NCBI GenBank assembly: GCA_944362965.1
Contig: CALVTR010000001.1
Span: forward strand, 90,529 to 154,528
Direction of reading: 5' to 3'
Length of the DNA: 64,000 nucleotides
Source of the DNA: an uncultured Clostridia bacterium
GTDB lineage: Bacteria > Bacillota > Clostridia > Christensenellales > UBA1242
Position 1 is the first letter of the stretch. The number at the start of each line of letters is the position of its first letter. The notes under the pieces were generated by a model. That model saw only the letters and a program-made list of their open reading frames with translations, had not been told where the DNA came from and ran no database searches. A program made the translations under genes and the position numbers. Positions 10,396 to 53,262 of this stretch are shown here, in pieces.

Positions 10396-10435
10396 AACAC
10401 ACTCTCCTTTTTTTGCGAGCAAGCTTCGCCTAAGC

Positions 10436-10539
10436 GAGAAGGCATAAAGGCTGATAAGCCTTTCAGAAGGCAAAAGCTTTTGCCTTGTTGTGCATTTTGG
10501 AAAAATGCACGTGCCTTCTCACACTCGCGGCGAAGCCGC
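10436..10539 (-). promoter_or_regulatory. structured 5' leader of locus 1 (four-way junction plus GC hairpin)
   Basis: Outer stem GAGAAGGCA/TGCCTTCTC (10436-10444 / 10512-10520) encloses three hairpins at 10446-10463, 10467-10486 and 10490-10510. A GCGGC-GAA-GCCGC hairpin follows at 10527-10539. Confidence 0.55.
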
Positions 10540-10581
10540 TCGCTCGCGATAGCCGCTTGACGCGTCTATCTTTATGCTATT

Positions 10582-10609
10582 AGTATACCCCCCCCGCAAC
10601 CCACGTCAA
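10582..10609 (-). promoter_or_regulatory. promoter P1 with a G8 tract in the spacer
   Basis: Minus strand reads TTGACG (10604-10609), TGGGTTGC, G8 (10588-10595), then TATACT (10582-10587), giving a 16-nt spacer. An A/T-rich UP-like region lies upstream. Confidence 0.65.
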
Positions 10610-12768: not shown

Positions 12769-13569
12769 CTATATAAGTGCTTGATTTAAAAGCACACGTT
12801 TCCCAAAACTCTTGTCAAAGCCTGAAAAGGACAGCCCAAGAGCCACATCCTTATAGCATTTGTCTTTGCCAACATGCACTTCATCCACTCTGAACACCAA
12901 AATGCTGCTGCTTGAGCCGACGCCTTTTATTTGAACAAAGTGCCCGTCTTTTATTGCGTTTTTATCATAATTTTTTGTGACAGCATTTATATAATTTATA
13001 TTAGAGTAGAGCTTGTGAAATACATCAAAAGTCACAAGAATAATAGGTTTTTTTGTAAGAGTATCGTAAAGCACGTTGCCGCTGTCAAGATAGCCTTCTT
13101 CATAAAAAGTTTTGCCATTATCAACAAGTGTGACTTGATATGTAAACTTTTCTATCATACTTTTTCTCTGCTGAACCTTGACAATAATTTTTGTTATTAT
13201 ATAAATAACCATCACAACGATTGCCACAACAAAAAGCGGAAAACTTCCTATGAGATTTGAAAGCGCATAGCACGCCCCACCAAAAAGAAAGGTTGAGGCA
13301 AATAGCGAGCAAAAATAAATCAAAAATTTTTTGAAAGATTTAACCTGAAAAGATATACAAACCATAAGAGAACACATTGCAAGCGTAATCACGATTTTTA
13401 ACGCCCAACTTAAATTATAAAGTGGCAAGATAATGGCAACGATGCTCCCTATCAATGCAGATATCATCCAAAGTCTTGGCGGCTCTTTCAATAAAAGCCC
13501 AGTCAATTTTAATATTAATGAATTTACAAAAAAGTTTATTACAAAAGAATATTCTATAATAATTTCCAT
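12769..13569 (-). CDS. spoIIGA: sigma-E processing aspartic peptidase SpoIIGA
   Basis: Polytopic N-terminus and the C-terminal GYLDSGNVLYDTLTKKPI motif (DSGN). Positioned upstream of sigE. The start is taken at MEIIIEY (13569); the ORF extends to 13680. Confidence 0.85.
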   Translation of the reverse strand: MEIIIEYSFVINFFVNSLILKLTGLLLKEPPRLWMISALIGSIVAIILPLYNLSWALKIVITLAMCSLMVCISFQVKSFKKFLIYFCSLFASTFLFGGACYALSNLIGSFPLFVVAIVVMVIYIITKIIVKVQQRKSMIEKFTYQVTLVDNGKTFYEEGYLDSGNVLYDTLTKKPIILVTFDVFHKLYSNINYINAVTKNYDKNAIKDGHFVQIKGVGSSSSILVFRVDEVHVGKDKCYKDVALGLSFSGFDKSFGKRVLLNQALI

Positions 13570-13707
13570 TTTTGCCTCGCTTGAAAAAATTATAAAATAA
13601 ACTTTTAAAAATAAATAAATAAAATATTTTATAAATTTGTTGAAATTTTGATTTTTTAAATAAAAAAAGACGACTTGCAATTTGTCGCCTTTTTATGTAT
13701 TATTTAA

Positions 13708-19979: not shown

Positions 19980-21196
19980 TTATTCAACAATAGCCCGCCA
20001 ATATCTATTGTAATAAGTATCTGTTAAATAAGTCAATGCATTTGTTTGAACTTCTGAAGCCGTTGACGTTGCTATAATTGATGAATCTGAGAAAGAACTG
20101 CTACTTGCTATTTCCCAGTTATATGGCGTATTGAATGTTATTGCTGTGAGTCTACCGCAACCATAGAAAGCTTCCCTACCTATACTTGTCACACTGTCTG
20201 GGATTGTTATACTTGTTAAACTACTGCAACCTCGGAAAGCACCTTCAAGTATACTTGTCACTCCTTCTGGGATTGTTATACTTGTTAAACTAGAGCAATT
20301 TTGGAAAGTAAAACTACCTATACTTGTCACTCCTTCTGGAATTACTATACTTGTTAAACTAGAGCAATTTTGGAAAGTAAAACTACCTATACTTGTCACT
20401 CCTTCTGGAATTACTATACTTGTTAAACTATCGCAACCAGAGAAAGCACGATCACACTAAATTCGTAAGGTGAACGAGAAGTTCTATATATTGTTGACGG
20501 GGTTACTAATTCTCCTGTTGCACTTGTATTACAATCTGATACTCTTGCTGTGCCTGGTGAAGTTGTATAACTATATTTTAAATTACTATTTGCTGTTTCA
20601 AATATTGCATAATAGGTTGTTGGTGAATTCTCTGTGAAGGTGAAATTATAGTCTGTAAGAGTTGATACAAGCTCTAGTATAGGAGATCGTGCTTTCTCTG
20701 GTTGCGATAGTTTAACAAGTATAGTAATTCCAGAAGGAGTGACAAGTATAGGGTCAAATTCTTTAAAGCCGTCTTCATCTGCGTCGGTTAGGTCATTCAC
20801 GCCAATTATCCCGCCATGTCTTTCTGACACACCATCATTTGCAAGAGCTCCTAAATCTACACTTTCTATTGACCACAGAATATCCGTTGCATTGATTATA
20901 TCAAAATACAAGATAAAAGAACCGTGACCATTCTCTTCTGTCTCTAAAGACGTTAAGTCCATATTAAAGTTTCCATTTATGTAACCCGGTGTGAAGCTAT
21001 CAACAACAATCTCTTCACCACCCGCTTCTTGATACCTGACTTCTTTAACAAACAAGCTTCTATCAGGCACGACAAAGCTTAAATTGCCTTGTATGCTTAT
21101 ATGCTGTTGCGTCGCTGCATATACCCCAAGTATCAACGCCCCTAGCATAAGCATAAATAATGAAATTGTGGATATCAATTTTACTTTTAATGACAT
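19980..21196 (-). pseudogene. rearranged BspA-type LRR surface protein paralog (locus 2)
   Basis: The N-terminal 150 aa are near-identical to locus 1. After KEFDP, about 85 codons are replaced by an antisense LRR unit. A 13-nt deletion at the FSV/DRAFSG junction causes a frameshift and stop at 20423. The LRR C-terminus continues in ORF 19980-20399. Confidence 0.8.
20386..20752. repeat. perfect 68-bp inverted repeat flanking a 231-bp segment
   Basis: 20386-20453 is the exact reverse complement of 20685-20752, checked base by base. Both arms encode one LRR unit (DRAFSGCDSLTSIVIPEGVTSIG). Confidence 0.9.
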
Positions 21197-21354
21197 AAAT
21201 CTCTCCTTAACGCAAAAATTTTATTTTTATTTTGTTTAATCACTGCTGTTTTTATGCAAATTTCGACCTTACTTGCATATCTTAGCCACATTTTAGCATT
21301 TTTGCAATCCCTTTGTCTCAAGGGTGACGGCACGATGCCGTCAAATCACGACCC

Positions 21355-21780
21355 GAATTTTCGAACCATATGTTCGACGATTGTTCGATTAAGAGTGTCT
21401 AAGTTTTAAACTACATCTCCGCTCTCTAAGCCTAACGCTTGGCGGTTATACGGCAGAGTGAGAATAAGAGATAAGCTATGTCTCCGCTCTTAAGCCAAAT
21501 GTTTGACGGCTGTCCGGCAAACTTAGTTTGCATCACTGTCCGATAAAGTGAATATAAGAAACAAACTTTATCTCCGCTCTCTAAGCCTAACGCTTGGCGA
21601 CTATCCGGCAGAGTAAGTTGAAAAAATAAACTTTGTCGCCGCTCTCAAACCTTACGTTTGACGATCGTCCGCGAGCCAGATGCTCGGCGTTTGTCCGGCA
21701 GAGTGACATAAAAGAATAGTCTTTATTCCCGCTCTCTTTAACCATATGTTCGACGGCTGTCTATGTGAGCGAGCTTTGTC
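21355..21780 (+). repeat. tandem array with alternating 65/90-bp units
   Basis: Unit heads T(C/T)(T/G/C)CCGCTCT at 21416, 21481, 21571, 21636 and 21726, giving spacings of 65, 90, 65 and 90. Each unit carries a 4-5 bp hairpin with a 5-nt loop followed by G(G/A)CG. Confidence 0.8.
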
Positions 21781-21788
21781 GCAGATAT

Positions 21789-21874
21789 GAGAAGGCATAA
21801 AGGCTGACAAGCCTTTTGGAAGGCAAAAAGTTTTTGCCTTCTTGTGCATTTTGAAAAAATGCACATGCCTTCTC
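21789..21874 (-). promoter_or_regulatory. locus 2 copy of the four-way-junction leader
   Basis: About 90% identical to 10436-10520, with the same outer stem GAGAAGGCA/TGCCTTCTC and three hairpins. Here about 590 bp of repeats separate it from the gene. Confidence 0.55.
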
Positions 21875-21928
21875 ACACTCGCGGCGAAGCCGCTCGCGAT
21901 GGACATAGTATGTCCATCTTTTGCTATT

Positions 21929-21956
21929 AGTATACCCCCCCCGCAACCCTTGTCAA
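21929..21956 (-). promoter_or_regulatory. promoter P2 with a G8 tract in the spacer
   Basis: Minus strand reads TTGACA (21951-21956), AGGGTTGC, G8 (21935-21942), then TATACT (21929-21934), giving a 16-nt spacer. Confidence 0.6.
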
Positions 21957-22112
21957 CAAATTTTAAGCATTTTTTTAAAAAATTTTTATTTTTTTTGTGG
22001 ATTTGTCTTATATTGATAAATTTTCCCTATCTCCACTTTATATGAATATCTTTTCATATAACTATAATTCCATTGTATACTCCCTTTCTTTTTCATTACA
22101 GCTTATAATTTG

Positions 22113-22230
22113 TTTCTCCGCCGCAGGCAAGCGAATGAGGGATTTTTATTAAAAAATCACAATAGGCAAAATATGTTTTGCCTATAAAAACTCTAGTGAG
22201 TTTTTCATTCGCTTGCCTGCGGCGGAGAAA
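22113..22230. other. nested palindrome D: 26-bp outer stem plus three hairpins
   Basis: TTTCTCCGCCGCAGGCAAGCGAATGA (22113-22138) pairs perfectly with 22205-22230. Inner hairpins lie at 22141-22158, 22162-22185 and 22187-22204. Confidence 0.7.
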
Positions 22231-22336
22231 ACTCAAAACCAGTTCTGTTCTATAAATTCCATCCTTATTATCTCTTCACCTTTCACTCTTCATTTTTCAC
22301 TCCCGCGTCAGCGGTATGTCGCCAAGCGTCCGGCTT

Positions 22337-26000: not shown

Positions 26001-26119
26001 GGGCGGCGACAAAATTTTAAAACAAAAGTTTTAAAATTTAAAAAGAGAAACTTTTTATCGCTCCGAGATAAAAAGTTTCTCTTTTTTGCTCGCTTTTTCA
26101 AAGCGAGCGGTCGCCGCCC
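26001..26119. other. nested palindrome A: 10-bp GC outer stem plus three perfect hairpins
   Basis: GGGCGGCGAC (26001-26010) pairs with GTCGCCGCCC (26110-26119). Inner stems of 12, 16 and 9 bp lie at 26012-26039, 26044-26082 and 26088-26108. Confidence 0.7.
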
Positions 26120-26145
26120 TGCTTATAAGCTAAACATACACACAT

Positions 26146-26304: not shown

Positions 26305-27444
26305 CTACACGCTCTCCGGATCGCCGCCAACTACTTCATCACCAATATAGGCATAGAGCTTATTTATAAGAGACTTTCTCTTTATTCTTGGCTCAAGAAT
26401 AGTAAGTAATTTTACAATTTTATCACCGTTTGCTATAACATCTTCTGTCCTTGCATATTCTAAAATGCCTTCAAGAAGCTCATCAATACTGATATTTCTT
26501 ACATATAAATTCTTTTCTTTATCGCCACGCGTTAAAATCTCAAGCACATTGCAGATATATTCAACATCCCCGCTCTCAGCAAGCTTGCTTGTGGCTTCCA
26601 CTCTACAATATCCAGTTGAGAGAGCAAATTGCATGCAGGCTCTTGGATTCTTGCATTTTTGCATAAATTTTTCAGCAATAACCTGTGAATACACCGGAGT
26701 ATAAGCATTTGCATACCTAATAACCTTATAAGGCTCCATTTCACTTACAATTTCTGCAATGGCGTTGATAAGAAATTTGCGACTTGCTCCCTTGATAGCA
26801 GGTCCATTATTTCCTATATAATCACAAAGTTTATGCAGGTATTCAACATTTCCTATCTCAACAAGCGCATCAATAATCCTATCTAATTTTGTTCTTCCAA
26901 GTCTTGCAAGGTGGTATATTGCTCGCGGGTTTTTGCTTTTAAGTATTGCACTTTCAAGTTTTATAAAATCATCACCATCTACTTGAGAAGCAACTTCAAG
27001 CATAAGCATTGGGTCATTTTTTTGAATAACCGAATCTATATATAAATCTTTGCTTATATTCTTTATATTTGCGGTAAAGCGTGCAAGTGCATTTGTATCG
27101 TTTGATTTTAGCACAATTTGTCCAATAATTTCTTTTTCTTCTTCAAAAAGACACTCTTGATTTTTTTCGGTATACTCAACTATACTATTTGGAGAATAAA
27201 CATAACTTAATAGACTAACAGGTATATGAAGATTATAAAACTTAACGCTTGGCAAATTTGCAAAAGCTTTAGCGTTAGATTGGCGAGCCACCTTTTGAAC
27301 TATTCCATCAGTCTCTTGTGGGCGAATATAAGCTTCAATATCTTTAAGCACATAAGTTATCTCGGCATCATTCCATGCGCGCGTTATAATCCCCACTCTA
27401 TTTACTCTGTCTGTCAATTTGCTTAATAATTCTTTAAATTCCAT
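26305..27444 (-). CDS. hypothetical alpha-helical repeat protein
   Basis: The start is taken at MEFKELL; the ORF extends to 27507. Internal repeats KNPRA...(A/L) and G(N/D)VEY(L/I). No catalytic motif recognised. Confidence 0.55.
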   Translation of the reverse strand: MEFKELLSKLTDRVNRVGIITRAWNDAEITYVLKDIEAYIRPQETDGIVQKVARQSNAKAFANLPSVKFYNLHIPVSLLSYVYSPNSIVEYTEKNQECLFEEEKEIIGQIVLKSNDTNALARFTANIKNISKDLYIDSVIQKNDPMLMLEVASQVDGDDFIKLESAILKSKNPRAIYHLARLGRTKLDRIIDALVEIGNVEYLHKLCDYIGNNGPAIKGASRKFLINAIAEIVSEMEPYKVIRYANAYTPVYSQVIAEKFMQKCKNPRACMQFALSTGYCRVEATSKLAESGDVEYICNVLEILTRGDKEKNLYVRNISIDELLEGILEYARTEDVIANGDKIVKLLTILEPRIKRKSLINKLYAYIGDEVVGGDPESV

Positions 27445-27570
27445 ATTTTTTTCTCCCTTTGTAATATTTCTATAAGTATATTTTACTACAATATTAAAAA
27501 TAGTCAATACTAAAATTGTAATTTTTTATCATTGACATGACCGGCTTTTTATGTTATAACAAACTGGTAG

Positions 27571-28269
27571 GTGAAAATCATGGAAGAAGCTTTTTTAAAA
27601 CTTAAAAAAATTGATGAATTTATTGAGAAAAAATATAGAATTTCAGATAGCCGCGACTTTAAAATTATCAAACTTTATGCGGACGCTGTCTATGATTTTT
27701 TAGTCCACTATTGCACCTATGATAGTAGTTCTGCTAGCATTGTTAAAGCAAACAACAACGACACCGAAATATATAATAGACTTTTAAACTTAAAAAACTG
27801 CGTCTTGACAGGCAAAGGAGTGTGTGGACAGTTTGCTCAATTTTTTACCACTCTTGTGGCAAATAGAATTTATAAGGTATGTGGAAAAGCAAGATGCGGC
27901 ATTCTTAACGCAAAGATATACTTTACAGACAAAAATGGAAATAACAAAATAGACCCGCATAGCTTAAACTTTCTTTCCTTTGACGGCAGGCTTTATCTAT
28001 ATGACATTTCAATGGGCTTAAAACAAGCTGTAAAAGCACAAGAGCCTAACGCTTTCTGCGGAATTGACAGTGAGCTCTATCAAACTCGCCTTGCAAAGTT
28101 TGACAATAATTCCACTATAGAGTCAACAAATATGCTATATATTGAGCCTAAGCCAATGAAAGCAGTGTTTGAACTTTTCTATCCACATAAAAGTTTTTAT
28201 ATCAAAAAGACGGAAGATTATGAAGGCGTTAAAGCCCCAGATATCTTCACATCTCCAGAAAATTATTAA
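27571..28269 (+). CDS. transglutaminase-like cysteine peptidase-fold protein
   Basis: GKGVCGQFAQFF (the G-x-C-x-x-FA core), then DPHS and LYDIS about 16 aa apart, fit a Cys-His-Asp triad. The ATG at 27580 is a likelier start than the GTG at 27571. Confidence 0.55.
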   Translation: MKIMEEAFLKLKKIDEFIEKKYRISDSRDFKIIKLYADAVYDFLVHYCTYDSSSASIVKANNNDTEIYNRLLNLKNCVLTGKGVCGQFAQFFTTLVANRIYKVCGKARCGILNAKIYFTDKNGNNKIDPHSLNFLSFDGRLYLYDISMGLKQAVKAQEPNAFCGIDSELYQTRLAKFDNNSTIESTNMLYIEPKPMKAVFELFYPHKSFYIKKTEDYEGVKAPDIFTSPENY

Positions 28270-36944: not shown

Positions 36945-37463
36945 CTAGATTACACTTTGTATTATCTCCCAAATTCGCGAAATATATACAACATTATCCG
37001 ATTTTTTTGTTTTTGTAAAACAAAATGCAGGAAAGACTATACACCACCAGTTGTCACCCGTCCCACTGCCGAGCTCCAAAATAAGGGCGTCATAATAGCC
37101 TTCTTCTAGCGTGATATTCTCATAGGTTCTTGTTGGGAAATACTCATTATCAAGCTTTGCATTTGATTTATATGTAAATCCATTTTGAGCAAGCACGCTA
37201 TCTGCCGTATTTTCTATTAAGGCAAAGTTCTGAGATACTTTTTCTTTTGTTTCGTCAAAGGTTTCAACTTCGCTTAGCACTGGTATTAAAGCTTCAACTA
37301 TTGCATCTTTAACCTTATACTTAACATTCTGGTCGCACTCCAAGTTAGAGTTTGCCCTTATATGTATTCTCAGATATTCAACTTCCACATCACTGCCGGT
37401 AGGACAAAATATTAAAACTGCCACGATAACAAGCGCCGACAAAATTCCAAGCACATATTTCAT
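36945..37463 (-). CDS. spoIIR: stage II sporulation protein R
   Basis: LRIHIRANSN...QNVKYKVKDAIV and GDNWWCIVFPAFCF are SpoIIR hallmarks. Confidence 0.88.
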   Translation of the reverse strand: MKYVLGILSALVIVAVLIFCPTGSDVEVEYLRIHIRANSNLECDQNVKYKVKDAIVEALIPVLSEVETFDETKEKVSQNFALIENTADSVLAQNGFTYKSNAKLDNEYFPTRTYENITLEEGYYDALILELGSGTGDNWWCIVFPAFCFTKTKKSDNVVYISRIWEIIQSVI

Positions 37464-37645
37464 AATTTAACTCCGTGACAATATAATTGACTTAATTTAT
37501 AGATAAAATTCTGTGAAAACAATAAAAAATAGGTATTTTTTGTCTATTTTTGTGTTATTTTTATTTTGCACGATGAAAAATAAATAGTTTTTTAATTAAT
37601 TTAAAAAATAAGTTTAAATTTCCCTTAGTGTTATTTATGTTTTTT

Positions 37646-37787
37646 CCGCACCTTAGCGGAAGCTGTTTGACAAATTCTTGTCAAACCTTGCTTTTAAATA
37701 GCTCCCTAGAAAATCTAGGGGGCTATCTAAAAACAATAAAGCTTAAACGCTATTTGCGTTTAAGCTTTGCTTCCGCTAAGGTGCAGG
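37646..37787. other. nested palindrome B: 16-18 bp outer stem plus three hairpins
   Basis: 37648-37663 pairs with 37769-37784, plus 2 further bp beyond a bulge. Inner hairpins at 37665-37686 (9 bp), 37698-37726 (12 bp with one T-G) and 37738-37768 (13 bp). Confidence 0.7.
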
Positions 37788-37897
37788 TAAAAACACTTCT
37801 CTTCACATTTTTATAAAACTTTAATCAATAAACTTAAAATCTATACTTTCACCGTTTTTTCTTTAAATTTATGATTAATATTTATAAATTCTTAATA

Positions 37898-39409
37898 TTA
37901 AACTCTTTGATAGAAAAGTATCAAAGACGTGTCATCTGCAAGTGGGAAAGCAACGTCCGCGTTTTGAGTGACAATCTGCTCTTCTTTAACTTTCACACTC
38001 TTTGCAATCTCCCATAGCTCCTGACCAGCACGTGCAAAGACAACTTCCATAGCGTAATCTCTTGGTGGATACTCTTCGGTTTCCACAGCTTCAGTGATTA
38101 CTGCTGAGAGTTTGTCATAGCAGCAATTTACGCAAGCTTTGACCTTTGCATCATAGAAAAGTTCTCTACCCTTTTTAACCGCAACGTCAACGTCATCAGC
38201 GATTGCATCAACAACCAATATTCCACCTTCAGGGCAAGAAAATTTGTCAGAAATTGTGAACGGCACATCAATTTGAGCAGAATATAGTGCATTATCTTCG
38301 TCATTTAGATATACCACTGTGGTCTTTGCAATGCCTTCGATAAATATCTCGCCATCATTTATATAGCTGTTTGTCACTGTGACAGCGTTGCCGCCGCTGA
38401 ATAAAATCTTATCAACTCTTGGTTTATCTTCATCAAGCACAAGTGAGCCTTCAATCTTGCCTTCCACAACTTCCATAGGGCAAACATAGCTGTTATCAAA
38501 AGACTCAGTTGTAACTTTGATATCACTCTTTGTGCTATAAAGGTCTTGCACAACCATCAAACTCTCTTCGCTATAGGCTGTCGCATGAAGCTCAATAGGA
38601 ACTTTTATGGCTATCTTGCAACCTTTTTCATCTTCAACAATCTCTGCTGTAACATTTTCTTGTTTAACCTCGCCGCGTCCTTCCACAAGACTATCACGAG
38701 TCGTTCCTTCTATCTCAAGCTCTTCTTTGAACGTGTCGTAAACATATCCACTTTCAAACTTGTCGTTATCATTTAAAAATATCACTCTTGTGGAAACTTC
38801 GCCGCTCATTGTCACAAAATTGACACCACTTTCCACAGATTTTACTAGCACATTGCTTTCAGATAAGATGATTTTCTTGACCTTGTCACGAATGTTGATT
38901 TCACTTGACACTTCTATGCTTTCACTTGCATGACCTATAAATCTTACAACATTGATTTCGTCATTTTTCAGACAAACATCATCGTCGTTACTTCTTATAC
39001 TGTGCACTTCTTTATTGCAAGCGACAAAACCTGATTGCTGCACGCTGACAACTATTTTAATATTTTCGCCATTTATGCTATCAATGTTGTAGTCAATAAT
39101 CTTTAATTTTATATCAGCAAAGCAGCCATTTTCTATATTCTCACTTTCAAACTTGGAAGAAAATGGGCAGGTTGAACAAACTGTGTTTAATTGTCCATCT
39201 TCTGACAAGAACACAATCTTGGTGTCAATAACGCCAGAATAGTTTATCACCCCATTTAAAGTTTCACTGCTTGACAGGTGACTCCCAAGCGAAACTGACA
39301 AAACTTTTGCGACATTTTCCCCTGCACTGACATTGCATTCAACAGAAAATTCGCTTTTTGCTAAACAATATTTTTTAGCCACATTAAAATTATTTGTTTC
39401 AAATGCCAT
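37898..39409 (-). CDS. SipL-like spore morphogenesis protein (repeated beta-rich domain plus LysM-like C-terminus)
   Basis: The size, the repetitive domain and the C-terminal LysM-like segment (GQELWEIAKSVKVKEEQIVTQN) resemble clostridial SipL/DUF3794 proteins. The start is taken at MAFETNN after GGAGGG. Confidence 0.55.
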   Translation of the reverse strand: MAFETNNFNVAKKYCLAKSEFSVECNVSAGENVAKVLSVSLGSHLSSSETLNGVINYSGVIDTKIVFLSEDGQLNTVCSTCPFSSKFESENIENGCFADIKLKIIDYNIDSINGENIKIVVSVQQSGFVACNKEVHSIRSNDDDVCLKNDEINVVRFIGHASESIEVSSEINIRDKVKKIILSESNVLVKSVESGVNFVTMSGEVSTRVIFLNDNDKFESGYVYDTFKEELEIEGTTRDSLVEGRGEVKQENVTAEIVEDEKGCKIAIKVPIELHATAYSEESLMVVQDLYSTKSDIKVTTESFDNSYVCPMEVVEGKIEGSLVLDEDKPRVDKILFSGGNAVTVTNSYINDGEIFIEGIAKTTVVYLNDEDNALYSAQIDVPFTISDKFSCPEGGILVVDAIADDVDVAVKKGRELFYDAKVKACVNCCYDKLSAVITEAVETEEYPPRDYAMEVVFARAGQELWEIAKSVKVKEEQIVTQNADVAFPLADDTSLILFYQRV

Positions 39410-39531
39410 CTTACCCTCCAACATTTACAAGATATAACTACTCACTGATGCTAGAAAATATGACTAAAAAGTTTAAAAAGTTTTAATTTTGTCAATAATC
39501 GTTTTAACAAGCAGATTCAAGGAGAAAAAAA

Positions 39532-39880: not shown

Positions 39881-40861
39881 CTAAGCCACTTCACCTATAT
39901 CTATAGTGACATTTTTTGTTATTTTACAAGTCAATATACTTTCATCGTCTGCTGTCGATGTTTCTATCTCATCATTTTCAACAGCGTGAGCAGTGATGTC
40001 GTAATCTACTTCGTCTGATGGCGTGACAATAGCCGTTGCATTTGTTGATGAAGCCGTGCTTGGGGATGAAGAAGCTTGCACATATGAAAGATATCCAATA
40101 ATCGCAGTGCCATTTGCATAAACAGTATATGAGTGAACATATCTACGTGGCTCTACGGAACTAGAATTTTCTTCCTGAGTTGAAACTTCATCTTGGAAAG
40201 GATTAGAAGCAAGTGTGAGATATAAATTAGAGCTTACATAAACTTCTGCACTGCCTTTTTCTTCAATAGTATAATACATTGAACTTCCTAAATCAGTTTT
40301 GAAACAAATCTCAATATCGCTCCTATAATTATTTATAGTAACCTTATACATAGTCGTTTCTGACAATTCTATGAAAATATTATTTAAGCTTATTGTTGTT
40401 GAGCTTGTTGCTTGAATATTAATATATATTGTGCCAGAAACCCCATCATATGTTGCTACTTCAGAAATTGGAACACCATCACCAGCTATTGTTCCGCTGA
40501 CGGTTAATGTTGCATTTGATATGTTAGATTGACTGCTTGCACTGTATGCTGTTGTGGTTGTATTGACAACATCTATTGCAACAGTTACTTTCCCACTATC
40601 TGTTAAAACTGTGCCGATATCAAGATCAAAGCTGTCTTGAACAAAGCCTGGAAAGAAATTTCCCATAGTCTGACCATCTGTCATGTCGGTGGATATCCTT
40701 ATGTCTTTTACATACAACGTTGAACCTTCTATATTAAATTGCACATTTCCTTTTAAATTTATGGTTATGTTACCAGTTACAGCCAAAACTCCCACCAAAA
40801 GCATACTAAATACTAACACAAAAGCTGAAATCATAGATACTAATTTTACTTTTAAACTCAT
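39881..40861 (-). CDS. secreted surface protein paralog without LRRs (locus 3)
   Basis: The N-terminal MSLKVKLVSMISAFVLVFSMLLVGVLAVTG and the following beta-rich domain (LYVKDIRIS...FFPGFV) are homologous to loci 1 and 2. The C-terminal part is Ser/Thr-rich. Confidence 0.8.
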   Translation of the reverse strand: MSLKVKLVSMISAFVLVFSMLLVGVLAVTGNITINLKGNVQFNIEGSTLYVKDIRISTDMTDGQTMGNFFPGFVQDSFDLDIGTVLTDSGKVTVAIDVVNTTTTAYSASSQSNISNATLTVSGTIAGDGVPISEVATYDGVSGTIYINIQATSSTTISLNNIFIELSETTMYKVTINNYRSDIEICFKTDLGSSMYYTIEEKGSAEVYVSSNLYLTLASNPFQDEVSTQEENSSSVEPRRYVHSYTVYANGTAIIGYLSYVQASSSPSTASSTNATAIVTPSDEVDYDITAHAVENDEIETSTADDESILTCKITKNVTIDIGEVA

Positions 40862-40926
40862 CTTTTCACTCCTTTTCTTTTTTATTTTTAGTTAAAGCTT
40901 TGTGAACATAGCTACGTGCTTTGCCC

Positions 40927-41032
40927 GTGCCTTAAGAAAACGTGCGAATTTTTAATTCGCACAGGCTGCAAATATTTGCAGCCTAAGAAACTCATTCGAG
41001 TTTCTGTTTTCTTAAGGCGCGGCCAAAGCCGC
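40927..41032 (-). promoter_or_regulatory. structured 5' leader of locus 3 (four-way junction plus GC hairpin)
   Basis: A 15-bp outer stem (40927-40941 / 41006-41020, one T-G pair) encloses hairpins at 40942-40962, 40963-40984 and 40986-41005, with 0-1 nt linkers. A GCGGC-CAAA-GCCGC hairpin lies at 41019-41032. Confidence 0.6.
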
Positions 41033-41076: not shown

Positions 41077-41103
41077 ATTATACCCCCCCGCAACCCACGT
41101 CAA
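41077..41103 (-). promoter_or_regulatory. promoter P3 with a G7 tract in the spacer
   Basis: Minus strand reads TTGACG (41098-41103), TGGGTTGC, G7 (41083-41089), then TATAAT (41077-41082), giving a 15-nt spacer. The upstream ~35 nt are identical to P1. Confidence 0.65.
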
Positions 41104-41349
41104 GCAAATTTAACAAATTTTTAAAAATTTTTTAAATTTTTTTATATTTTTTTATATTTTTTATTATTTTTATTATTTTTATTATTTGTATTATTAAAAA
41201 ATATTATACTCGATTTATATATCAAAAATCCAAATTAAACAAACATGGGTGCAAATAAAAAATATTACAAAGACATTTCATTGTGCTTTCTGTGTTTAAA
41301 AAAACCCAAAATTCTTGCTTTCTATAAACTTTTATACGCAAAGTTGACA

Positions 41350-41378: not shown

Positions 41379-43388
41379 TTAATTATCATTAAGAACAATG
41401 GCATTTCTTCTATCAATGTCGTAGAAGATTTTATCAACCTCAAGTTTTTTAGAAATTCCCATAGGTTCAGGAGCTGATGACTTAACCATACATTTAGTTG
41501 CATAGAACGGTGTCATGGTGTCCATCATGATTTCCTTTCTGAATATCTTTGCAACAACCGTCCATTGTTTAAGCTGTCTTAATTGTTGTTTATCAAGCAG
41601 CGGTCTGCGTGTTCGCTGAACAGAAGTCGAGATATTTTCTCCAGAATCTGATTCTTTTGTATTACGCGACCTATTCTCTTCTTCGTGGAATACCGTTGTT
41701 TCACCGCAGGCTTCTGAGAAGGCTTGAATAGTTGACGGGTCTTCTGAGCCTAAGAACACTTCCATCTGGAAGTTACCACGAATGTTTTGAGCTTCATCAG
41801 CACCATACTTAATATCAAGTTGTTTATATGATTGAAGAACTATTTCAAAGAACACGTTTCTTGAACGAGCAACTGTAACCATAGTTCCAAACTTAGGAAC
41901 AGGTGGCATATTACCAAACTCATCAAGAATGAAATATACAGGACGTTTAAGTTTTCCTGTCTTGCCATTCTTAGGATTTACTGTTCTGTTTGCGACATCG
42001 ACAAGCACCTTATAGAGCTGACTTATACAAAGCACGCCTAGTGGGTGACGTTCAGTTTTGTGGTCTGGAATACGAATGAAGAATGCTGTTGGACGTTCTG
42101 GGATATCTTCAAAATCAATATCCGTTCCGCTTGTCATATAGAAGATACCTTCGTCGCCGAGCATATTACCAATAGAAGAGCCAAGTGTTGAAATAAATGA
42201 CCTTTGTGTAACAGGGCTGGCAAGACAAACTGTTGACATAAGGTCATGCACGGTGCTAAGTCTTGGGTCTCTGCCTTCGCTATATTTTGTCAAAGTTTTA
42301 AGAGCATTTTCTCTATCACCCGCAGGATCACGGCGCATACAAATCTTATATAGATTATAGAAATTAAATTTGTCAAGAGTCATGCCCAGTCTCGGGTCGC
42401 GGCTATCTTCAAGCATACCTTCCATAATACCAAGAATAAAGTCACGACAACCATCAGGCCACATCTTATCTTTGGCATTAGGATCATCTGGAATAAGAGA
42501 AAGCGAAATGTTTTTTAAGTTAGATTTTGCTTCATCTTCAAGTTGAACACGTCTTGCTTCAAGTTCCTGTTGAAGGATGTCGTTATTTGGGAAAGCTTTT
42601 CCTTCAAAACCAAACCAAGTGTCGCCATAGGTTGCTCCACCAATTTGATCTGGCGAAAATCTTTTATAGCCCATCTCTTCAGGGGTTGCATTGCTTATCT
42701 TCTTTACTTCTTTTGCAAGATTTCCTGCTCTTTCATAAGTTTTATAAGCAATTTCCATAGGATTCCAACGTGATGACGCATAAGGATTTTCAAGGTTTAG
42801 AACGATAATATTATAGCCTTCTTCTCTTAAAGCGTTTGCATTATCGGCGTAAAGTTCGCCCTTAGGGTCAGTCATAACAAGGCTAGGCTTTTGCCCAGTG
42901 TGAGCAAGTATTCTAATTGTTGGATTTGCGAAAATCTGTGTCTTACCAGTACCAGTAGTACCTAAAACCAATGCGTGAGTTTCAGGTTTCATATTGACTT
43001 CATAATGCCCGCCAACTTCCTTATTTCTAAAAACAAAGCCTGTTTTCTTAAGCGATGGAAGATTGTTCCATGTTGAAAAGATAAGGTCTGGGTCAGTGCG
43101 TAATCTTTCAGTTGTGATAAATTTAGAGTCAAAGTTGATATCAGTCTTTTCGCCTTCAGCCGTAGTTCCAACATTAGAGCCCATACCTTTTTTCTCTTTT
43201 GATAAGAGCGCTGTGCATAGTCCTGCAATAACGCCTATCGCAAGCATAGCAAGTGATATAACATTGACAAGTGCATCCGTTATCTCTCTTGTGCCTTCTT
43301 GGGTAAAATAAGAAATTGCAACACCAATTCCATAACCAAGAATGCCAAATACCAACATTAAAATGACACTAAGCTTGAATTTCTTCAT
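41379..43388 (-). CDS. VirD4/TraG-type type IV coupling protein (membrane-anchored P-loop ATPase)
   Basis: Two N-terminal TM helices, Walker A LGTTGTGKTQ, the DPKGEL motif and Walker B YFILDEFGNM. Confidence 0.85.
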   Translation of the reverse strand: MKKFKLSVILMLVFGILGYGIGVAISYFTQEGTREITDALVNVISLAMLAIGVIAGLCTALLSKEKKGMGSNVGTTAEGEKTDINFDSKFITTERLRTDPDLIFSTWNNLPSLKKTGFVFRNKEVGGHYEVNMKPETHALVLGTTGTGKTQIFANPTIRILAHTGQKPSLVMTDPKGELYADNANALREEGYNIIVLNLENPYASSRWNPMEIAYKTYERAGNLAKEVKKISNATPEEMGYKRFSPDQIGGATYGDTWFGFEGKAFPNNDILQQELEARRVQLEDEAKSNLKNISLSLIPDDPNAKDKMWPDGCRDFILGIMEGMLEDSRDPRLGMTLDKFNFYNLYKICMRRDPAGDRENALKTLTKYSEGRDPRLSTVHDLMSTVCLASPVTQRSFISTLGSSIGNMLGDEGIFYMTSGTDIDFEDIPERPTAFFIRIPDHKTERHPLGVLCISQLYKVLVDVANRTVNPKNGKTGKLKRPVYFILDEFGNMPPVPKFGTMVTVARSRNVFFEIVLQSYKQLDIKYGADEAQNIRGNFQMEVFLGSEDPSTIQAFSEACGETTVFHEEENRSRNTKESDSGENISTSVQRTRRPLLDKQQLRQLKQWTVVAKIFRKEIMMDTMTPFYATKCMVKSSAPEPMGISKKLEVDKIFYDIDRRNAIVLNDN

Positions 43389-43565
43389 ACAACTCCCCCA
43401 ATATAATTTGTTCCTTCTTTACAAAAAATATAAGAAAAAACAATCTTTTCATAATTAAAATAACACTTTTAGTGAGTTTTGTCAATTAAATATGGTTACT
43501 ATAATAATAATTTTAAAATGATACTATTAATACCCTTTTTTGCTAAATAACTTTTTAGTAGTCAA

Positions 43566-43600
43566 TTAAAAATGGCACTTTTTACTTAGTGCCATTTTTA
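43566..43600 (-). terminator. terminator after the 163-aa membrane protein gene
   Basis: AATGGCACT/AGTGCCATT 9-bp stem. Confidence 0.6.
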
Positions 43601-43612
43601 TTTATTATAAAG

Positions 43613-44104
43613 TTAATTTATTTCAACTTCGTCATCTTCAAGAGGTTTGTTAATTTTTTGTTCGCCTTTGTTTTCAGCAATTTTCATACTCATTTGAGCA
43701 CCAAAAAGTGCTATAGTAGAAATAAGTCCTGCACCCATTCCGCCCAATAATCCAATGGAAAATACACTTTGACTTGCATATGAAGCATTGTATTGATTTA
43801 AAACATCGGTTGGGACAGAAGTGTCTGCATTCATGTAATCATGAACATTTAAATTTTTTAAGTTGTCTATCTCACTTTGATATTCTTGTGATGTAATCTC
43901 GCCATTGTTATACTGTTGATTAAGGTCGTCAATCTGCACTTGTTTATACAAAATATTAGCATTTTCATAATTTGTTTTTGACTTTGCATCTTCTTGAATC
44001 CCTGCATTTATTAAACAACCGATAAATGAAGCACCCAAAATCGTGGCTCCAACAAACAACCCAATTTTTGCAATTTTTAGTATTTTTTCACTCTTTTTTA
44101 TCAT
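43613..44104 (-). CDS. two-TM membrane protein, unknown function
   Basis: Hydrophobic segments at the N- and C-termini with a polar Q/N-rich middle. Confidence 0.55.
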   Translation of the reverse strand: MIKKSEKILKIAKIGLFVGATILGASFIGCLINAGIQEDAKSKTNYENANILYKQVQIDDLNQQYNNGEITSQEYQSEIDNLKNLNVHDYMNADTSVPTDVLNQYNASYASQSVFSIGLLGGMGAGLISTIALFGAQMSMKIAENKGEQKINKPLEDDEVEIN

Positions 44105-44329
44105 ACTATCTCCTATACTTAAATTTTAACATACAATGGTGTATTTGTCAATATACACATTTTTAAAAATTATCACTATTTGTTTTAAAAATAAAAAAAG
44201 TCAAACAGCATCATTTATCTCCACTAATTTAATAAGAGTATCCTTTTTTGCTATTTGACTTTAAACATAAATTTTAATTCTAATATATTTAGTTTTTAAT
44301 TCTAATATATTTTAGTTTATAAATAGAAA

Positions 44330-46505: not shown

Positions 46506-46581
46506 GGAAGTTTAGCTCAGCTGGGAGAGCATCTGCCTTACAAGCAGAGGGTCATAGGTTCGAGCCCTATAACTTCCACCA
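46506..46581 (+). tRNA. tRNA-Val (anticodon UAC) with encoded CCA
   Basis: Acceptor stem GGAAGTT/AACTTCC, D-loop AGCTCAGCTGGGAGAGC, anticodon loop CTTACAA, T-arm GGTTCGAGCCC and a 3' ACCA. Confidence 0.95.
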
Positions 46582-51255: not shown

Positions 51256-51433
51256 CTTCGTTTATCTCCTTAGGTAATTCTTCATCACTCTCAATATAAG
51301 TGTATTTATTAGGAATATCTATTGCTTCAACATACTTCTTGCCCGTTTCGTTTTGAATAATATACTTATTAGCGTCACTGTATGTCTTTATAAGTTGTCT
51401 GTCGTTTACAATTATTGTTTCTTGTTTAATCAT
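51236..51433 (-). CDS. small phage protein
   Basis: 65-aa ORF overlapping both neighbouring genes. Confidence 0.45.
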   Translation of the reverse strand: MIKQETIIVNDRQLIKTYSDANKYIIQNETGKKYVEAIDIPNKYTYIESDEELPKEINEDEQQSI

Positions 51434-53262
51434 TCGCTCACCTCACTTGCTTTTACCCATTCTACATTTGTTAATGATACCCAGTTCGTTGCAGTTGTCC
51501 ACTCATCGTATAGTGCGTCTGGAATTATTATTTGACAGTTTGTAGCATGTCCTAAATAACTCACATTCGACAAGGTTGGAATAGTTGTGCAATATCTAAA
51601 ATCATACTTAGTAATTGCATTGCAGCTGCTATATTGTGATGAGTTTATATTTGGCGCCTGTCCTAGATAAGTTACAGACAACAAACTACTACAGCTTTGA
51701 AAGCATTGCCCTCCAACGTTTTCTACGCTTGATGGAATAGTTATGCTTGTTAAACCACTACAACTCATAAATACTGCATTATCTATATCTTTTAAAGAAT
51801 TAGGCAATATAACAGATTGCAATTCACGACATTGATGAAACGCACCATAACCTAACTGTAATAAGCCATCTGGAAGTGACACAGTTTTTAGATAATAACA
51901 ATTTTCAAACGCATCAGATAATATTATTTTACAATCTTTGTGAACTACGCATGAAGAAATGTGAGTATTTACGCAAGATTTTAATACAAGATATGAATTA
52001 TTCTTGCTAGAAAGATACCCTGCGTTGTCATAAACTTTTACATTTAAACTATAGCAATAATCAAAAGCACTAGAACCTATATCTTTTAAATTATCAGGAA
52101 GAGTTATATTTTTAAGGTTATGACAGCCATTAAATGCACTTATGTTTATTGTTGTTAAATTGTCGCAATCGGATAAATCAACTGTATTTAGACTATAGCA
52201 ATTTTGAAAGGCATAATTACCAATTTCTGTTATCGGCAACGATAGTTCTATATCTTTTATCTTTTTACAACCATTGCAAAGGTCACTTTCTATTTCTGTT
52301 ATATTTGTTTTCTCTAAATTTAAAGAATTTAAGCTATTACATTGCGAAAAAGCATTTGTATCTAATTCTGATATGTTGTTAGATATGCTTATTGATTCTA
52401 AGTTACTACAATTACAAAACGCATCACTTTTTATTGAATTGACAGATTGTGGCAACACAATATTTTTTAAATTATAGCAACTATAAAAACTATACTGCCC
52501 AATTTCAGTAATAGAATTAGGAATAACACAAGCTTTAAGATTGTAACAATAATAAAACATTCTTTCAAGATTAGTATATGGTTGCGTTCTCTTTGGTATC
52601 GTTATTGTTTCTAACGAGACCGCATATTGACACATTCTTAATAATGATGTATGTTGTTCGAGTCCAAGCCTGATATTTTTGCAACAATATAGATTGTTAT
52701 AAGCAATATTTGTGAATAAACTATAAGCACCATTAGAAACACTAAAATAAAACTCAAATGAGCCTGTAGCACTGACTTCAATGGTATAATTACCTTTCTG
52801 CTGATAAGTATGGCTATAGATAGTTGAATTAGCTCCCGACCTAACAGCATAAGTATCTGTTGTTCCATCACCCCAAGACACACTTATTGAACAATTATTA
52901 TCTACCATACTTGTTACGTTTATATTGCGAAATTGAACATATAGTCCAGTGCTATCATTTAGTTCAATATCAAACTCATCATTTTCGCTTGTTGTGATGT
53001 ATGTCGCACCAATAGTTATGTCGCTATCTTCAACTATTATTTGTCCATCAACGATATCTACAGGGCTCGTCCACTCTTGAAATGTCAATCTATCATGTGC
53101 TGGTGGCTCTGTAGGCAGCGTAAACGTATCGCCCGTGTCAAGCCAATCTTCTTTTAAGATTGTTCCATCGTAGTCAATTACTTTAATCCAATACTTGCCA
53201 TTGTGCATTTTGTCAGTATTGACTACAACTCCAACTTCCTTTCCATCTATGTATACTGGCAT
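51430..53262 (-). CDS. phage tail/receptor-binding protein with a PKD-like domain and BspA-type LRRs
   Basis: VSWGDGTTD...HTYQQKGNYTIEV is a PKD-like signature. About 13 repeats of the L-x-x-I-x-(L/I)P-x-S(V/I)-x-x-I-x-x-x-AF-x-x-C type follow. Confidence 0.7.
   Translation of the reverse strand: MPVYIDGKEVGVVVNTDKMHNGKYWIKVIDYDGTILKEDWLDTGDTFTLPTEPPAHDRLTFQEWTSPVDIVDGQIIVEDSDITIGATYITTSENDEFDIELNDSTGLYVQFRNINVTSMVDNNCSISVSWGDGTTDTYAVRSGANSTIYSHTYQQKGNYTIEVSATGSFEFYFSVSNGAYSLFTNIAYNNLYCCKNIRLGLEQHTSLLRMCQYAVSLETITIPKRTQPYTNLERMFYYCYNLKACVIPNSITEIGQYSFYSCYNLKNIVLPQSVNSIKSDAFCNCSNLESISISNNISELDTNAFSQCNSLNSLNLEKTNITEIESDLCNGCKKIKDIELSLPITEIGNYAFQNCYSLNTVDLSDCDNLTTINISAFNGCHNLKNITLPDNLKDIGSSAFDYCYSLNVKVYDNAGYLSSKNNSYLVLKSCVNTHISSCVVHKDCKIILSDAFENCYYLKTVSLPDGLLQLGYGAFHQCRELQSVILPNSLKDIDNAVFMSCSGLTSITIPSSVENVGGQCFQSCSSLLSVTYLGQAPNINSSQYSSCNAITKYDFRYCTTIPTLSNVSYLGHATNCQIIIPDALYDEWTTATNWVSLTNVEWVKASEVSE

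Follow-up and report, generated by a model that had tools for sequence, protein, structure and literature searches.

Palindromic elements of several described kinds resemble the one reported here, which occupies positions 37646 to 37787 of a 64,000-nucleotide (nt) stretch of DNA from an uncultured Clostridia bacterium (GenBank assembly GCA_944362965.1, contig CALVTR010000001.1, positions 90,529 to 154,528; hereafter the window) and lies between a sipL-like gene and spoIIR. An ordinary intrinsic terminator is a single hairpin followed by a T-run. REP/BIME and REPIN of Proteobacteria and BOX of Streptococcus pneumoniae are extragenic palindromic modules; their copies often lie in 3′ untranslated regions (UTRs) or between cistrons, where they stabilize the upstream mRNA or attenuate read-through, and BIMEs bind gyrase and IHF. 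The 3′ stabilizer of Bacillus thuringiensis cry mRNA (the "positive retroregulator") is a simple inverted repeat, believed to stop 3′ exonucleases. Integron attC sites, ~60 to 140 nt long, are recognized by their folded shape with little sequence conservation, and the cwpV switch of Clostridioides difficile has inverted repeats around ~100 to 200 bp with orientation-dependent terminator hairpins (PMC2784873). Judging by its sequence, the element would work like an intrinsic terminator or a 3′ stabilizer and is built in the modular manner of BOX and BIME, and it does not appear to be a member of those repeat families. Coordinates throughout are positions within the window, and L-numbers denote the contigs or lineages of relatives used for comparison.

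The element folds into a closing stem around three hairpins with junctions of 0 to 2 nt. The spoIIR-proximal arm of the closing stem (37648 to 37663) reads GCACCTTAGCGGAAGC on the plus strand, its inner 8 nt, GCGGAAGC, forming a core kept in all lineages; it makes 16 perfect pairs with the sipL-proximal arm (37769 to 37784; plus strand GCTTCCGCTAAGGTGC). Two extra pairs, CC at 37646 to 37647 with GG at 37786 to 37787, form across bulged A37785, so that the stem is as the preliminary description of this DNA had it, 16 bp plus 2 bp past a bulge. Hairpin a (37738 to 37768), the first hairpin in the sense of the genes, reads AAAGCTTAAACGC-AAATA-GCGTTTAAGCTTT on the minus strand (13 bp, −16.7 kcal/mol), its loop being TATTT on the plus strand. 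The T-rich tail that follows it on the minus strand (ATTGTTTTTA, 37728 to 37737) doubles as the 5′ base of the middle hairpin, b, which in its extended form spans 37688 to 37736 around a core at 37698 to 37726 (13 bp including T37703.G37721, loop AAA). The base of b, TTGCTT/AAGCAA, is common to relatives, in which b has 8 to 11 bp (TTGCTTGCC..GGCAAGCAA); the inner palindrome is present only in the window species, where this palindromic insert carries b to ~20 bp (23 pairs in the minus-strand fold). Hairpin c (37665 to 37686; GTTTGACAA-loop-TTGTCAAAC, 9 bp) has the loop ATTC on the plus strand and GAAT on the sense strand. Of the hairpin lengths reported earlier (9, 12, and 13 bp), those of 9 and 13 bp stand, while the middle core comes to 13 bp when its T.G pair is counted.

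The nested palindrome is genuine and far beyond chance. Its RNA minimum free energy (MFE) was −91.3 kcal/mol on the plus strand (z, −15.6) and −97.6 kcal/mol on the minus strand (z, −16.8), and 0 of 200 shuffles were as low on either strand; DNA parameters gave −61.6 and −63.2 kcal/mol for the identical fold. Sliding 180-nt folds over the whole window averaged −30.3 kcal/mol (standard deviation, 8.9), with six clear outliers, each of which proved to have this design. The T-G pair had been offered as a hint of plus-strand RNA. It is no argument for one, because two more G.T pairs, in the extended middle stem, are wobbles on the minus strand; over all elements of this design the wobbles point both ways, and the more stable strand alternates between lineages.

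Compared with the described systems, the element shares with an intrinsic terminator a 13-bp stem of −16.7 kcal/mol and a T-run past a stop codon on the gene's own strand. Unlike the ordinary single hairpin, however, it is locked into a perfect four-way junction with two conserved helices past the stop point, and its sister elements (E1 to E4 and E6 in the window, described below) lack terminator anatomy. As in a bidirectional terminator, hairpin c is followed by CTTGCTTTTA on the other strand, and TTGCTT/AAGCAA gives a T-rich tail for both hairpins. Like boxA and boxC, which enclose boxB, its outer complementary parts enclose hairpins; REP, BIME, and BOX families nevertheless number tens to hundreds of copies per genome (REP/BIME usually >100), and REP comes with a RAYT transposase, whereas the element was single copy in the 64 kb and in a metagenome scan, and the seven instances of the design share shape and not sequence, except for E1 and E2. 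No RAYT or IS200-like transposase was found among the ~50 window proteins scanned against Pfam. The likeness to the cry stabilizer lies in a very stable 3′-terminal structure, here a predicted one, on a sporulation-phase, mother-cell mRNA of a spore-forming Firmicute, although the stabilizer is not a nested four-way junction. An attC site would have a comparable length and a comparable place at the borders of accessory genes, where E3 and E4 also lie, but none of the six window elements has an R box (RYYYAAC/GTTRRRY) or extrahelical bases in its arms, there is no integrase, and attC is one imperfect stem rather than three perfect hairpins.

Searches of other collections yielded no relative. 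With Rfam (15) at gathering thresholds, the only match in the window was its tRNA-Val, and L001, L002, L004, L007, and L041 gave nothing; in E-value mode on the region, the best sub-threshold scores were 25 bits, against thresholds of 54 to 100. A blastn comparison with plasmids and phages found no relative of the element, exact-pattern scans found only the same locus in metagenome contigs and nothing in viral contigs, and no description of such nested elements was found in the literature searched.

Both flanking genes are on the minus strand. The upstream gene (37898 to 39424) encodes a SipL/SPOCS-domain protein, and the element lies in or just past its 3′ UTR; spoIIR (36945 to 37463) is downstream. 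Within the spacer, alignment succeeds only for the element and for the conserved spoIIR promoter and ribosome binding site block (37464 to 37523, minus strand); the flanks of the element do not align. Between the two is a decayed remnant of the ancestral sipL terminator (37524 to 37551, minus strand; AAAAATAG-ACAAAAAATAC-CTATTTTTT, −2.6 kcal/mol). A 62-amino-acid (aa) open reading frame (ORF) on the plus strand (37628 to 37816) crosses the palindrome. It had been dismissed as a palindrome artifact, rightly so: it is open in the window species only and is not conserved, and in-frame stop codons in L024, L001, and L020 rule out a protein-coding reading.

We gathered 20 distinct additional sipL-spoIIR spacer sequences. 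In lineages with 69 to 78% identical SpoIIR (L003, L005, L006, L008, L009, L036, and L038), the spacer is 105 to 170 nt long and has no element; in these distant lineages, it consists of one ordinary terminator and the spoIIR promoter. The element is carried by six lineages: the window species, L024 (94%), L001 and L020/L022/L040 (~89%; the L020 type represents three distinct loci), and L002 (81%). L023 (83%) does not carry it but may retain a degenerate right end. In every carrier, the element follows the sipL stop codon and precedes both the old terminator (AAAAATAGG..CCTATTTTTT) and the spoIIR promoter block. Its distance from the stop codon varies: in the window, the 16-bp closing stem begins 113 nt and hairpin a ~130 nt after it, and in L020/L022/L040, the element begins 12 nt and hairpin a ~24 nt after it. 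The element is a lineage-restricted insertion, and the mosaic homology of its flanks is consistent with one ancestral insertion followed by vertical descent.

The spacer is evidently permissive for structured insertions, since other lineages took up different ones there. L007 has a ~370-nt multihairpin insert (L007:2680-3050) that is closed by a 15-bp stem of its own and comprises two internally similar units, and the spacers of L004 (7521 to 7758) and L041 (470 to 745) contain ~120-nt tandem repeats; none of these three inserts matched Rfam.

To read the conservation of the fold, we scored a set of 60 stem nt, made up of the hairpin stems a and c together with the closing-stem core of 8 bp (GCGGAAGC/GCTTCCGC). 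All 60 are identical to the window in L024, L001, and L020, lineages in which spoIIR third codon positions are 81.5%, 69.4%, and 71.7% identical to it, respectively; if sites changed at the rate seen for L001, the chance of finding all 60 unaltered would be ~3e−10. L002 keeps 56 of 60, with 59.5% of spoIIR third positions identical, and its hairpin a shows one C-G to T-A and one A-T to G.T change. The 9-bp stem of hairpin c is invariant across lineages, and its extra base pair is G-C in L001 and L020 and T-A in L002. The loops, on the other hand, differ in every lineage, being AAATA, GAATA, AAAA, or AAAACAAAA in hairpin a and GAAT, ATTC, AGCC, or AGTCC in hairpin c. Outside its core, the closing stem changes in both arms at four positions, which read A-T, T-A, T-A, and C-G in the window, G-C, G-C, C-G, and G-C in L020, and G-C, G-C, T-A, and T-A in L002. 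The two SNPs within the species that fall in the element point the same way: one lengthens the T-run after hairpin a, and the other makes a G.U pair into G-C. Pair changes were read by hand, without a formal covariation count, and the MAFFT alignment mis-registers L002. The preliminary description had made its proposal hang on whether pairing persists in orthologous spacers; it does, the fold being kept in six lineages with invariant stems, free loops, and a covarying closing stem.

Some of these changes look like the products of template switching during replication, for which multibase compensatory change, stem extension, and loop inversion have been described as footprints (PMC8794818). All three types were seen. 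The hairpin c loop is GAAT in the window and ATTC, its exact reverse complement, in L024. L001 and L024 combine a left closing-stem arm of the window type with a right arm of the L020 type and pair over 8 bp only, and in the window lineage the right arm has been rewritten across several bases, restoring 16 perfect pairs. The palindromic insert in b is the third. Purifying selection is also required, because template switching alone lets stems drift as covarying pairs and no change occurred in three lineages.

On the minus strand, the element has the anatomy of a terminator. A consensus terminator scan called hairpin a with ATTGTTTTTA a terminator on that strand, and when the same rule was applied by hand (T 7/8), it was the only clean sense-strand first-hairpin terminator among the six window elements. 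Hairpin a has 13 bp with 5 G-C pairs and −15.6 to −16.8 kcal/mol across lineages, and in every case it is on the sipL strand downstream of the stop codon. The tail after it is TTTTTTGCTT in L013, L024, L001, and L020 and contains TTTTTTG or TTTTTG in five lineages. This T-run after the first hairpin on the gene-sense strand is the sole orientation-specific conserved feature and therefore points to a sipL 3′ end rather than a separate gene. Hairpin c is terminator-like on the plus strand only, with CTTGCTTTTA, and for both hairpins the tail is supplied by the T-rich 5′ arm of b, for a on one strand and for c on the opposite one; the core thus appears laid out as a face-to-face bidirectional terminator. 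The element would belong to the sipL transcription unit, because no promoter-like site adjoins it on either strand and it begins 12 nt past the stop codon in the L020-type genomes.

The fate of the older terminator agrees with this anatomy. In the element-free lineages L003, L008, L009, and L023, it has −11.5 to −12.5 kcal/mol. Where the element is present, it falls to −5.7 kcal/mol in L002, −4.2 in L024, and −2.6 in the window and to 0 in L001 and L020. The older terminator behaves as a redundant part would, and because it decayed only in element-bearing lineages, we read hairpin a as the predicted working terminator of the sipL-like gene.

Our tentative preference, held at somewhat less than even confidence, is that the element is a compound sipL terminator and 3′-end structure whose perfect stems are kept by template-switch mutation plus selection. 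Read on the minus strand, it would act in cis at the 3′ terminus of the sipL-like transcription unit. Hairpin a (37768 to 37738) and its T-run would form the Rho-independent sipL terminator, in place of the older one farther downstream, and transcripts that read through a would fold the entire four-way junction. Such a very stable 3′ structure might block 3′ exonucleases, offer RNase III a duplex of 16 to 24 bp, or both, and by either route the sipL message of the mother cell would be kept apart from spoIIR, the forespore gene. Meanwhile, template switching would copy arm to arm, flip loops, and insert palindromes, and purifying selection would eliminate stem-breaking variants. The sequences themselves show the fold with its orthology and conservation, a terminator-like anatomy confined to the sense strand, the decay of the old terminator, and the template-switch footprints; termination at a and the action of b, c, and the closing stem on RNA are the parts of this proposal that we infer. 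In model spore formers, the homologue of sipL is expressed in the mother cell and that of spoIIR in the forespore; by that analogy, tight insulation of the two is plausible, and their compartment-specific expression would give a reason for it. If correct, the proposal would offer a clear natural example of terminator turnover, with termination passing to a newly gained structured module and the older terminator falling into decay, and of a module whose perfect stems are maintained by template switching plus selection. Template switching has been inferred for rRNA and microRNA hairpins (PMC8794818); no report of a bacterial cis element maintained in this way was found in the literature searched.

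Several points weigh against this proposal. Termination at a is a prediction only, and the T-run of the window (TTTATTG) is weaker than those of its relatives. A stop at a would leave b, c, and the distal arm untranscribed, yet the c stem and the closing-stem core are as conserved as a, so that their conservation needs read-through RNA, antisense RNA, or a role at the DNA level. The fold is equally good on both strands, with 12 G.U against 6 A.C wobbles over all elements, a tally subject to detection bias, and a DNA-level palindrome would give the same. Finally, the five sister elements do not fit a terminator: E1 and E2 lie in 5′ leaders and have no terminator-like hairpin on the sense strand, and E3 and E4 sit beyond ordinary terminators. 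We tried a common terminator logic for all six window elements and rejected it, as only the element at the sipL-spoIIR boundary (E5) fits.

These sister elements show that the design recurs. The element had been called the fourth sequence-unrelated instance of an outer stem with three hairpins; the recurrence stands, while the window holds six instances and not four, and two of them are related. E1 (~10415 to 10545; closing stem and three hairpins) follows a poly-G promoter in the 5′ leader of a BspA-LRR gene. E2 (21765 to 21897), in the 5′ leader of gene 20423-21196, is its paralogue (93% over 109 nt), with a symmetric A/T gain between them, and E1 and E2 are the only sequence-related pair among the six; apart from this pair, nothing from any of the elements is repeated elsewhere in the window. 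E3 (22109 to 22231), whose closing stem is perfect over ~27 bp, lies past the ftsW/spoVE terminator and upstream of the E2 promoter. E4 (26001 to 26121) lies between the terminator of an accessory gene and mraY; its strain variants differ in the three loops and by one C-to-T change that gives a G.U pair in the closing stem. E6 (40917 to 41030), in the 5′ leader of a secreted-protein gene (39881 to 40861), is replaced by a different structure in L001. Outside the window, L041, whose MraY is 87% identical and whose gene order is as in the window, has a closing stem with three hairpins after ftsW (L041:13527-13645), the same relative position as E3. The two are not significantly similar (12 to 13 of 300 shuffles reach the score).

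The L041 element is itself partly duplicated, with a second copy of its first hairpin and 5′ arm at a distance of 4 kb (13528 to 13581 versus 9497 to 9549, 89%), and a ~170-nt structured block that follows it is missing from a same-species contig (L042). Alignment of the ~170-nt structured blocks of L041 with those of L007 was uninformative.

The design is therefore present at seven places with six independent origins, E1 and E2 being paralogues, always with exactly three hairpins, junctions of 0 to 2 nt, and a length of 114 to 142 nt. Such uniformity argues for constraint on the shape itself. The elements were seen only in the window's clade and in L041, with none in ~75 kb from seven other relatives (L003 to L009). 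No motif common to the closing-stem arms was seen beyond G+C richness, and no RNA motif is conserved in the loops. E1, E2, and E6 follow a shared promoter and lead surface-protein genes, and E3 and E4 are at the borders of inserted genes.

One way to account for this recurrence, bold and on present evidence rather doubtful, is a new class of ~120-nt perfect four-way junctions defined by architecture, confined to this clade, and maintained across speciation by selection. The class would serve a structure-reading factor specific to the lineage as a general boundary module for transcripts or DNA domains, in 5′ leaders of phase-variable surface-protein genes, at inserted-gene borders, and at the sipL/spoIIR boundary. 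If a shared reader does stand behind the three-hairpin shape at seven sites, it would define a new structure-based element class in an uncultured gut lineage, and the main interest of the locus lies in this recurrent, selected four-way-junction architecture.

Among other explanations, a DNA-level role or a structure-reading factor of the clade is a serious rival, and the DNA-level role is the main one, although we hold it to be somewhat unlikely. The palindrome would act as DNA, double or single stranded, either in the form of a cruciform or cloverleaf bound by a structure-specific protein of the lineage or by shaping supercoiling, replication, or recombination, with termination by a as a side effect. 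Almost purely Watson-Crick pairing with equal stability on both strands would follow naturally, as would loops without conserved RNA motifs, conservation of hairpin c and the closing-stem core past the predicted terminator, and the appearance of one design in contexts as different as 5′ leaders, positions beyond a terminator, and a 3′ UTR; the restriction of the elements to the window's clade and L041 also counts in its favor. The closing-stem arms are nonetheless ~105 nt apart, which makes cruciform extrusion unlikely, and no candidate protein emerged: no recombinase, transposase, or HUH enzyme was found among the ~50 window proteins scanned. A DNA-level role also leaves the sense-only conservation of the T-run and the decay of the old terminator unaccounted for. 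A small nonautonomous mobile or selfish palindrome, of the MITE (miniature inverted-repeat transposable element), REP/REPIN, or BOX kind, that inserted once and persisted would explain a lineage-restricted insertion in a spacer that also took up the L007 block and the L004 and L041 tandem repeats. Its closing stem resembles terminal inverted repeats, and other elements have paralogous copies (E1/E2 and the L041 repeat) or, beside the L041 element, a block present or absent between strains. We rejected this reading, which we regard as quite unlikely, on the lack of extra copies and of a target duplication: no part of the element recurs in the window, its only match in the metagenome collection was the same locus, with none in viral contigs, plasmids, or phages, and, unlike in a MITE, no direct repeats border it and the stem is prolonged into the flanks. 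The mosaic homology of the flanks is what a single ancestral insertion with vertical descent would give, and stems this strongly conserved would be unexpected in a dead insertion.

Conservation also bears on the view that the element is a functionless by-product of template-switch mutagenesis, by which palindromes are made, lengthened, and re-perfected in AT-rich spacers. The mechanism is documented (PMC8794818), and its footprints are there (the loop flip, the multibase re-perfection of an arm, the palindromic insertion, and the symmetric A/T gain of E1/E2). Arm-to-arm correction would, however, fix about half of new mutations in both arms and yield covarying drift at about half the neutral rate, against 0 changes observed in 60 stem nt (30 pairs) in three lineages where ~18 to 31% of synonymous third positions have changed. 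A random process would not be expected to give exactly three hairpins each time at seven places, and decay of the old terminator is confined to lineages that have the element. We consider this view very unlikely. A free-standing ~140-nt small RNA gene on either strand, the preliminary suggestion, would account for a very stable, conserved fold of suitable size but is more doubtful still, given the absence of an adjoining promoter-like site on either strand, the unalignable flanks, the start 12 nt past the sipL stop codon in L020/L022/L040, loops that vary freely and so leave no conserved single-stranded seed, and the lack of any Rfam family near its threshold. Least probable of all is an invertible switch of the cwpV type, in which a recombinase would flip the inter-arm segment and exchange a strong terminator (a) for a weak one (c). 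Inverted arms do flank ~105 bp, hairpins a and c are terminator-like on opposite strands, and E1, E2, and E6 lie between a promoter and surface-protein genes, as the cwpV switch does (PMC2784873). The element itself is not downstream of a promoter, its arms shrink to 8 bp in L001, and the window proteins that were scanned included no recombinase. Moreover, the order relative to the genes is a-b-c in 12 of 12 element sequences (6 of the same species and 6 from other lineages), a count in which a minority orientation could be masked because assemblies are consensus sequences, and E2 (3 sequences), E3 (5), and E4 (10), the window counted, were never inverted. With every contig of E2 to E5 in the same orientation, inversion was rejected.

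The promoter shared by E1, E2, and E6 is an ~80-nt block, TTGAC[GA]-..TTGC-G(n)-TATA[CA]T, at 10582 to 10609, 21929 to 21956, and 41078 to 41104 (minus strand), with a G-run in its spacer. It precedes the surface-protein genes 8476-10398 (BspA-LRR), 20423-21196, and 39881-40861. The window has runs of G8, G8, and G7, of which the third is G8 in the same-species contig L025, and related promoters have G10 (L001) and ~G9 (L041); the pattern suggests that these genes probably phase vary by slipped-strand change of the promoter spacer length (15, 16, or 20 nt). The 5′ leader between E2 and gene 20423-21196 (21350 to 21760, minus strand) contains four to five diverged repeats of 63-nt and 28-nt families, each with a small hairpin, TCRAAC-N5-GTTYGA, which Tandem Repeats Finder missed. 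The region 19980 to 21196 encodes two ORFs in the window (257 aa and a 139-aa LRR protein) versus a single 616-aa PKD and LRR protein in L026:10815-12665, so this surface-protein gene was split or replaced between strains. Genes 26305-27507 (minus strand) and 27571-28269 (plus strand), between murE and mraY, have no Pfam matches and are absent from L041; E4 is at the junction of this pair (26305 to 28269) with mraY, and E3 is at the junction of ftsW with an inserted surface-protein cassette.

Nearly all genes of the window are on the minus strand, in the order, from low to high coordinates, hrcA-grpE-dnaK-dnaJ, sigG, sigE, spoIIGA, ftsZ/A/Q, a mur/mraY/ftsW cluster, ypeB-sleB-spoIIR-sipL-veg, a type IV coupling protein gene, recO, and tRNA-Val. 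Metagenome contigs that end (L028 and L030) or start (L015 to L019) in this region break inside E3 or 57 to 162 nt upstream of spoIIR, short of E5. Palindromes or AT-rich spacers probably break short-read assemblies, and such elements may therefore be underrepresented in metagenome-assembled genomes. The type IV secretion coupling-protein gene (41379 to 43388) is 5.9% diverged from L025, with neighboring genes at 0 to 0.8%, and looks like a local recombination tract or the remnant of a mobile element. L025 also lacks 43526 to 44230, which contains an ORF at 43613 to 44104, and its homology to the window ends at tRNA-Val (46506 to 46581); the DNA beyond therefore appears to be strain variable and is possibly an integrated element. 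It includes a BspA-LRR gene (51430 to 53262) and a gene for an IrrE/M78 peptidase.

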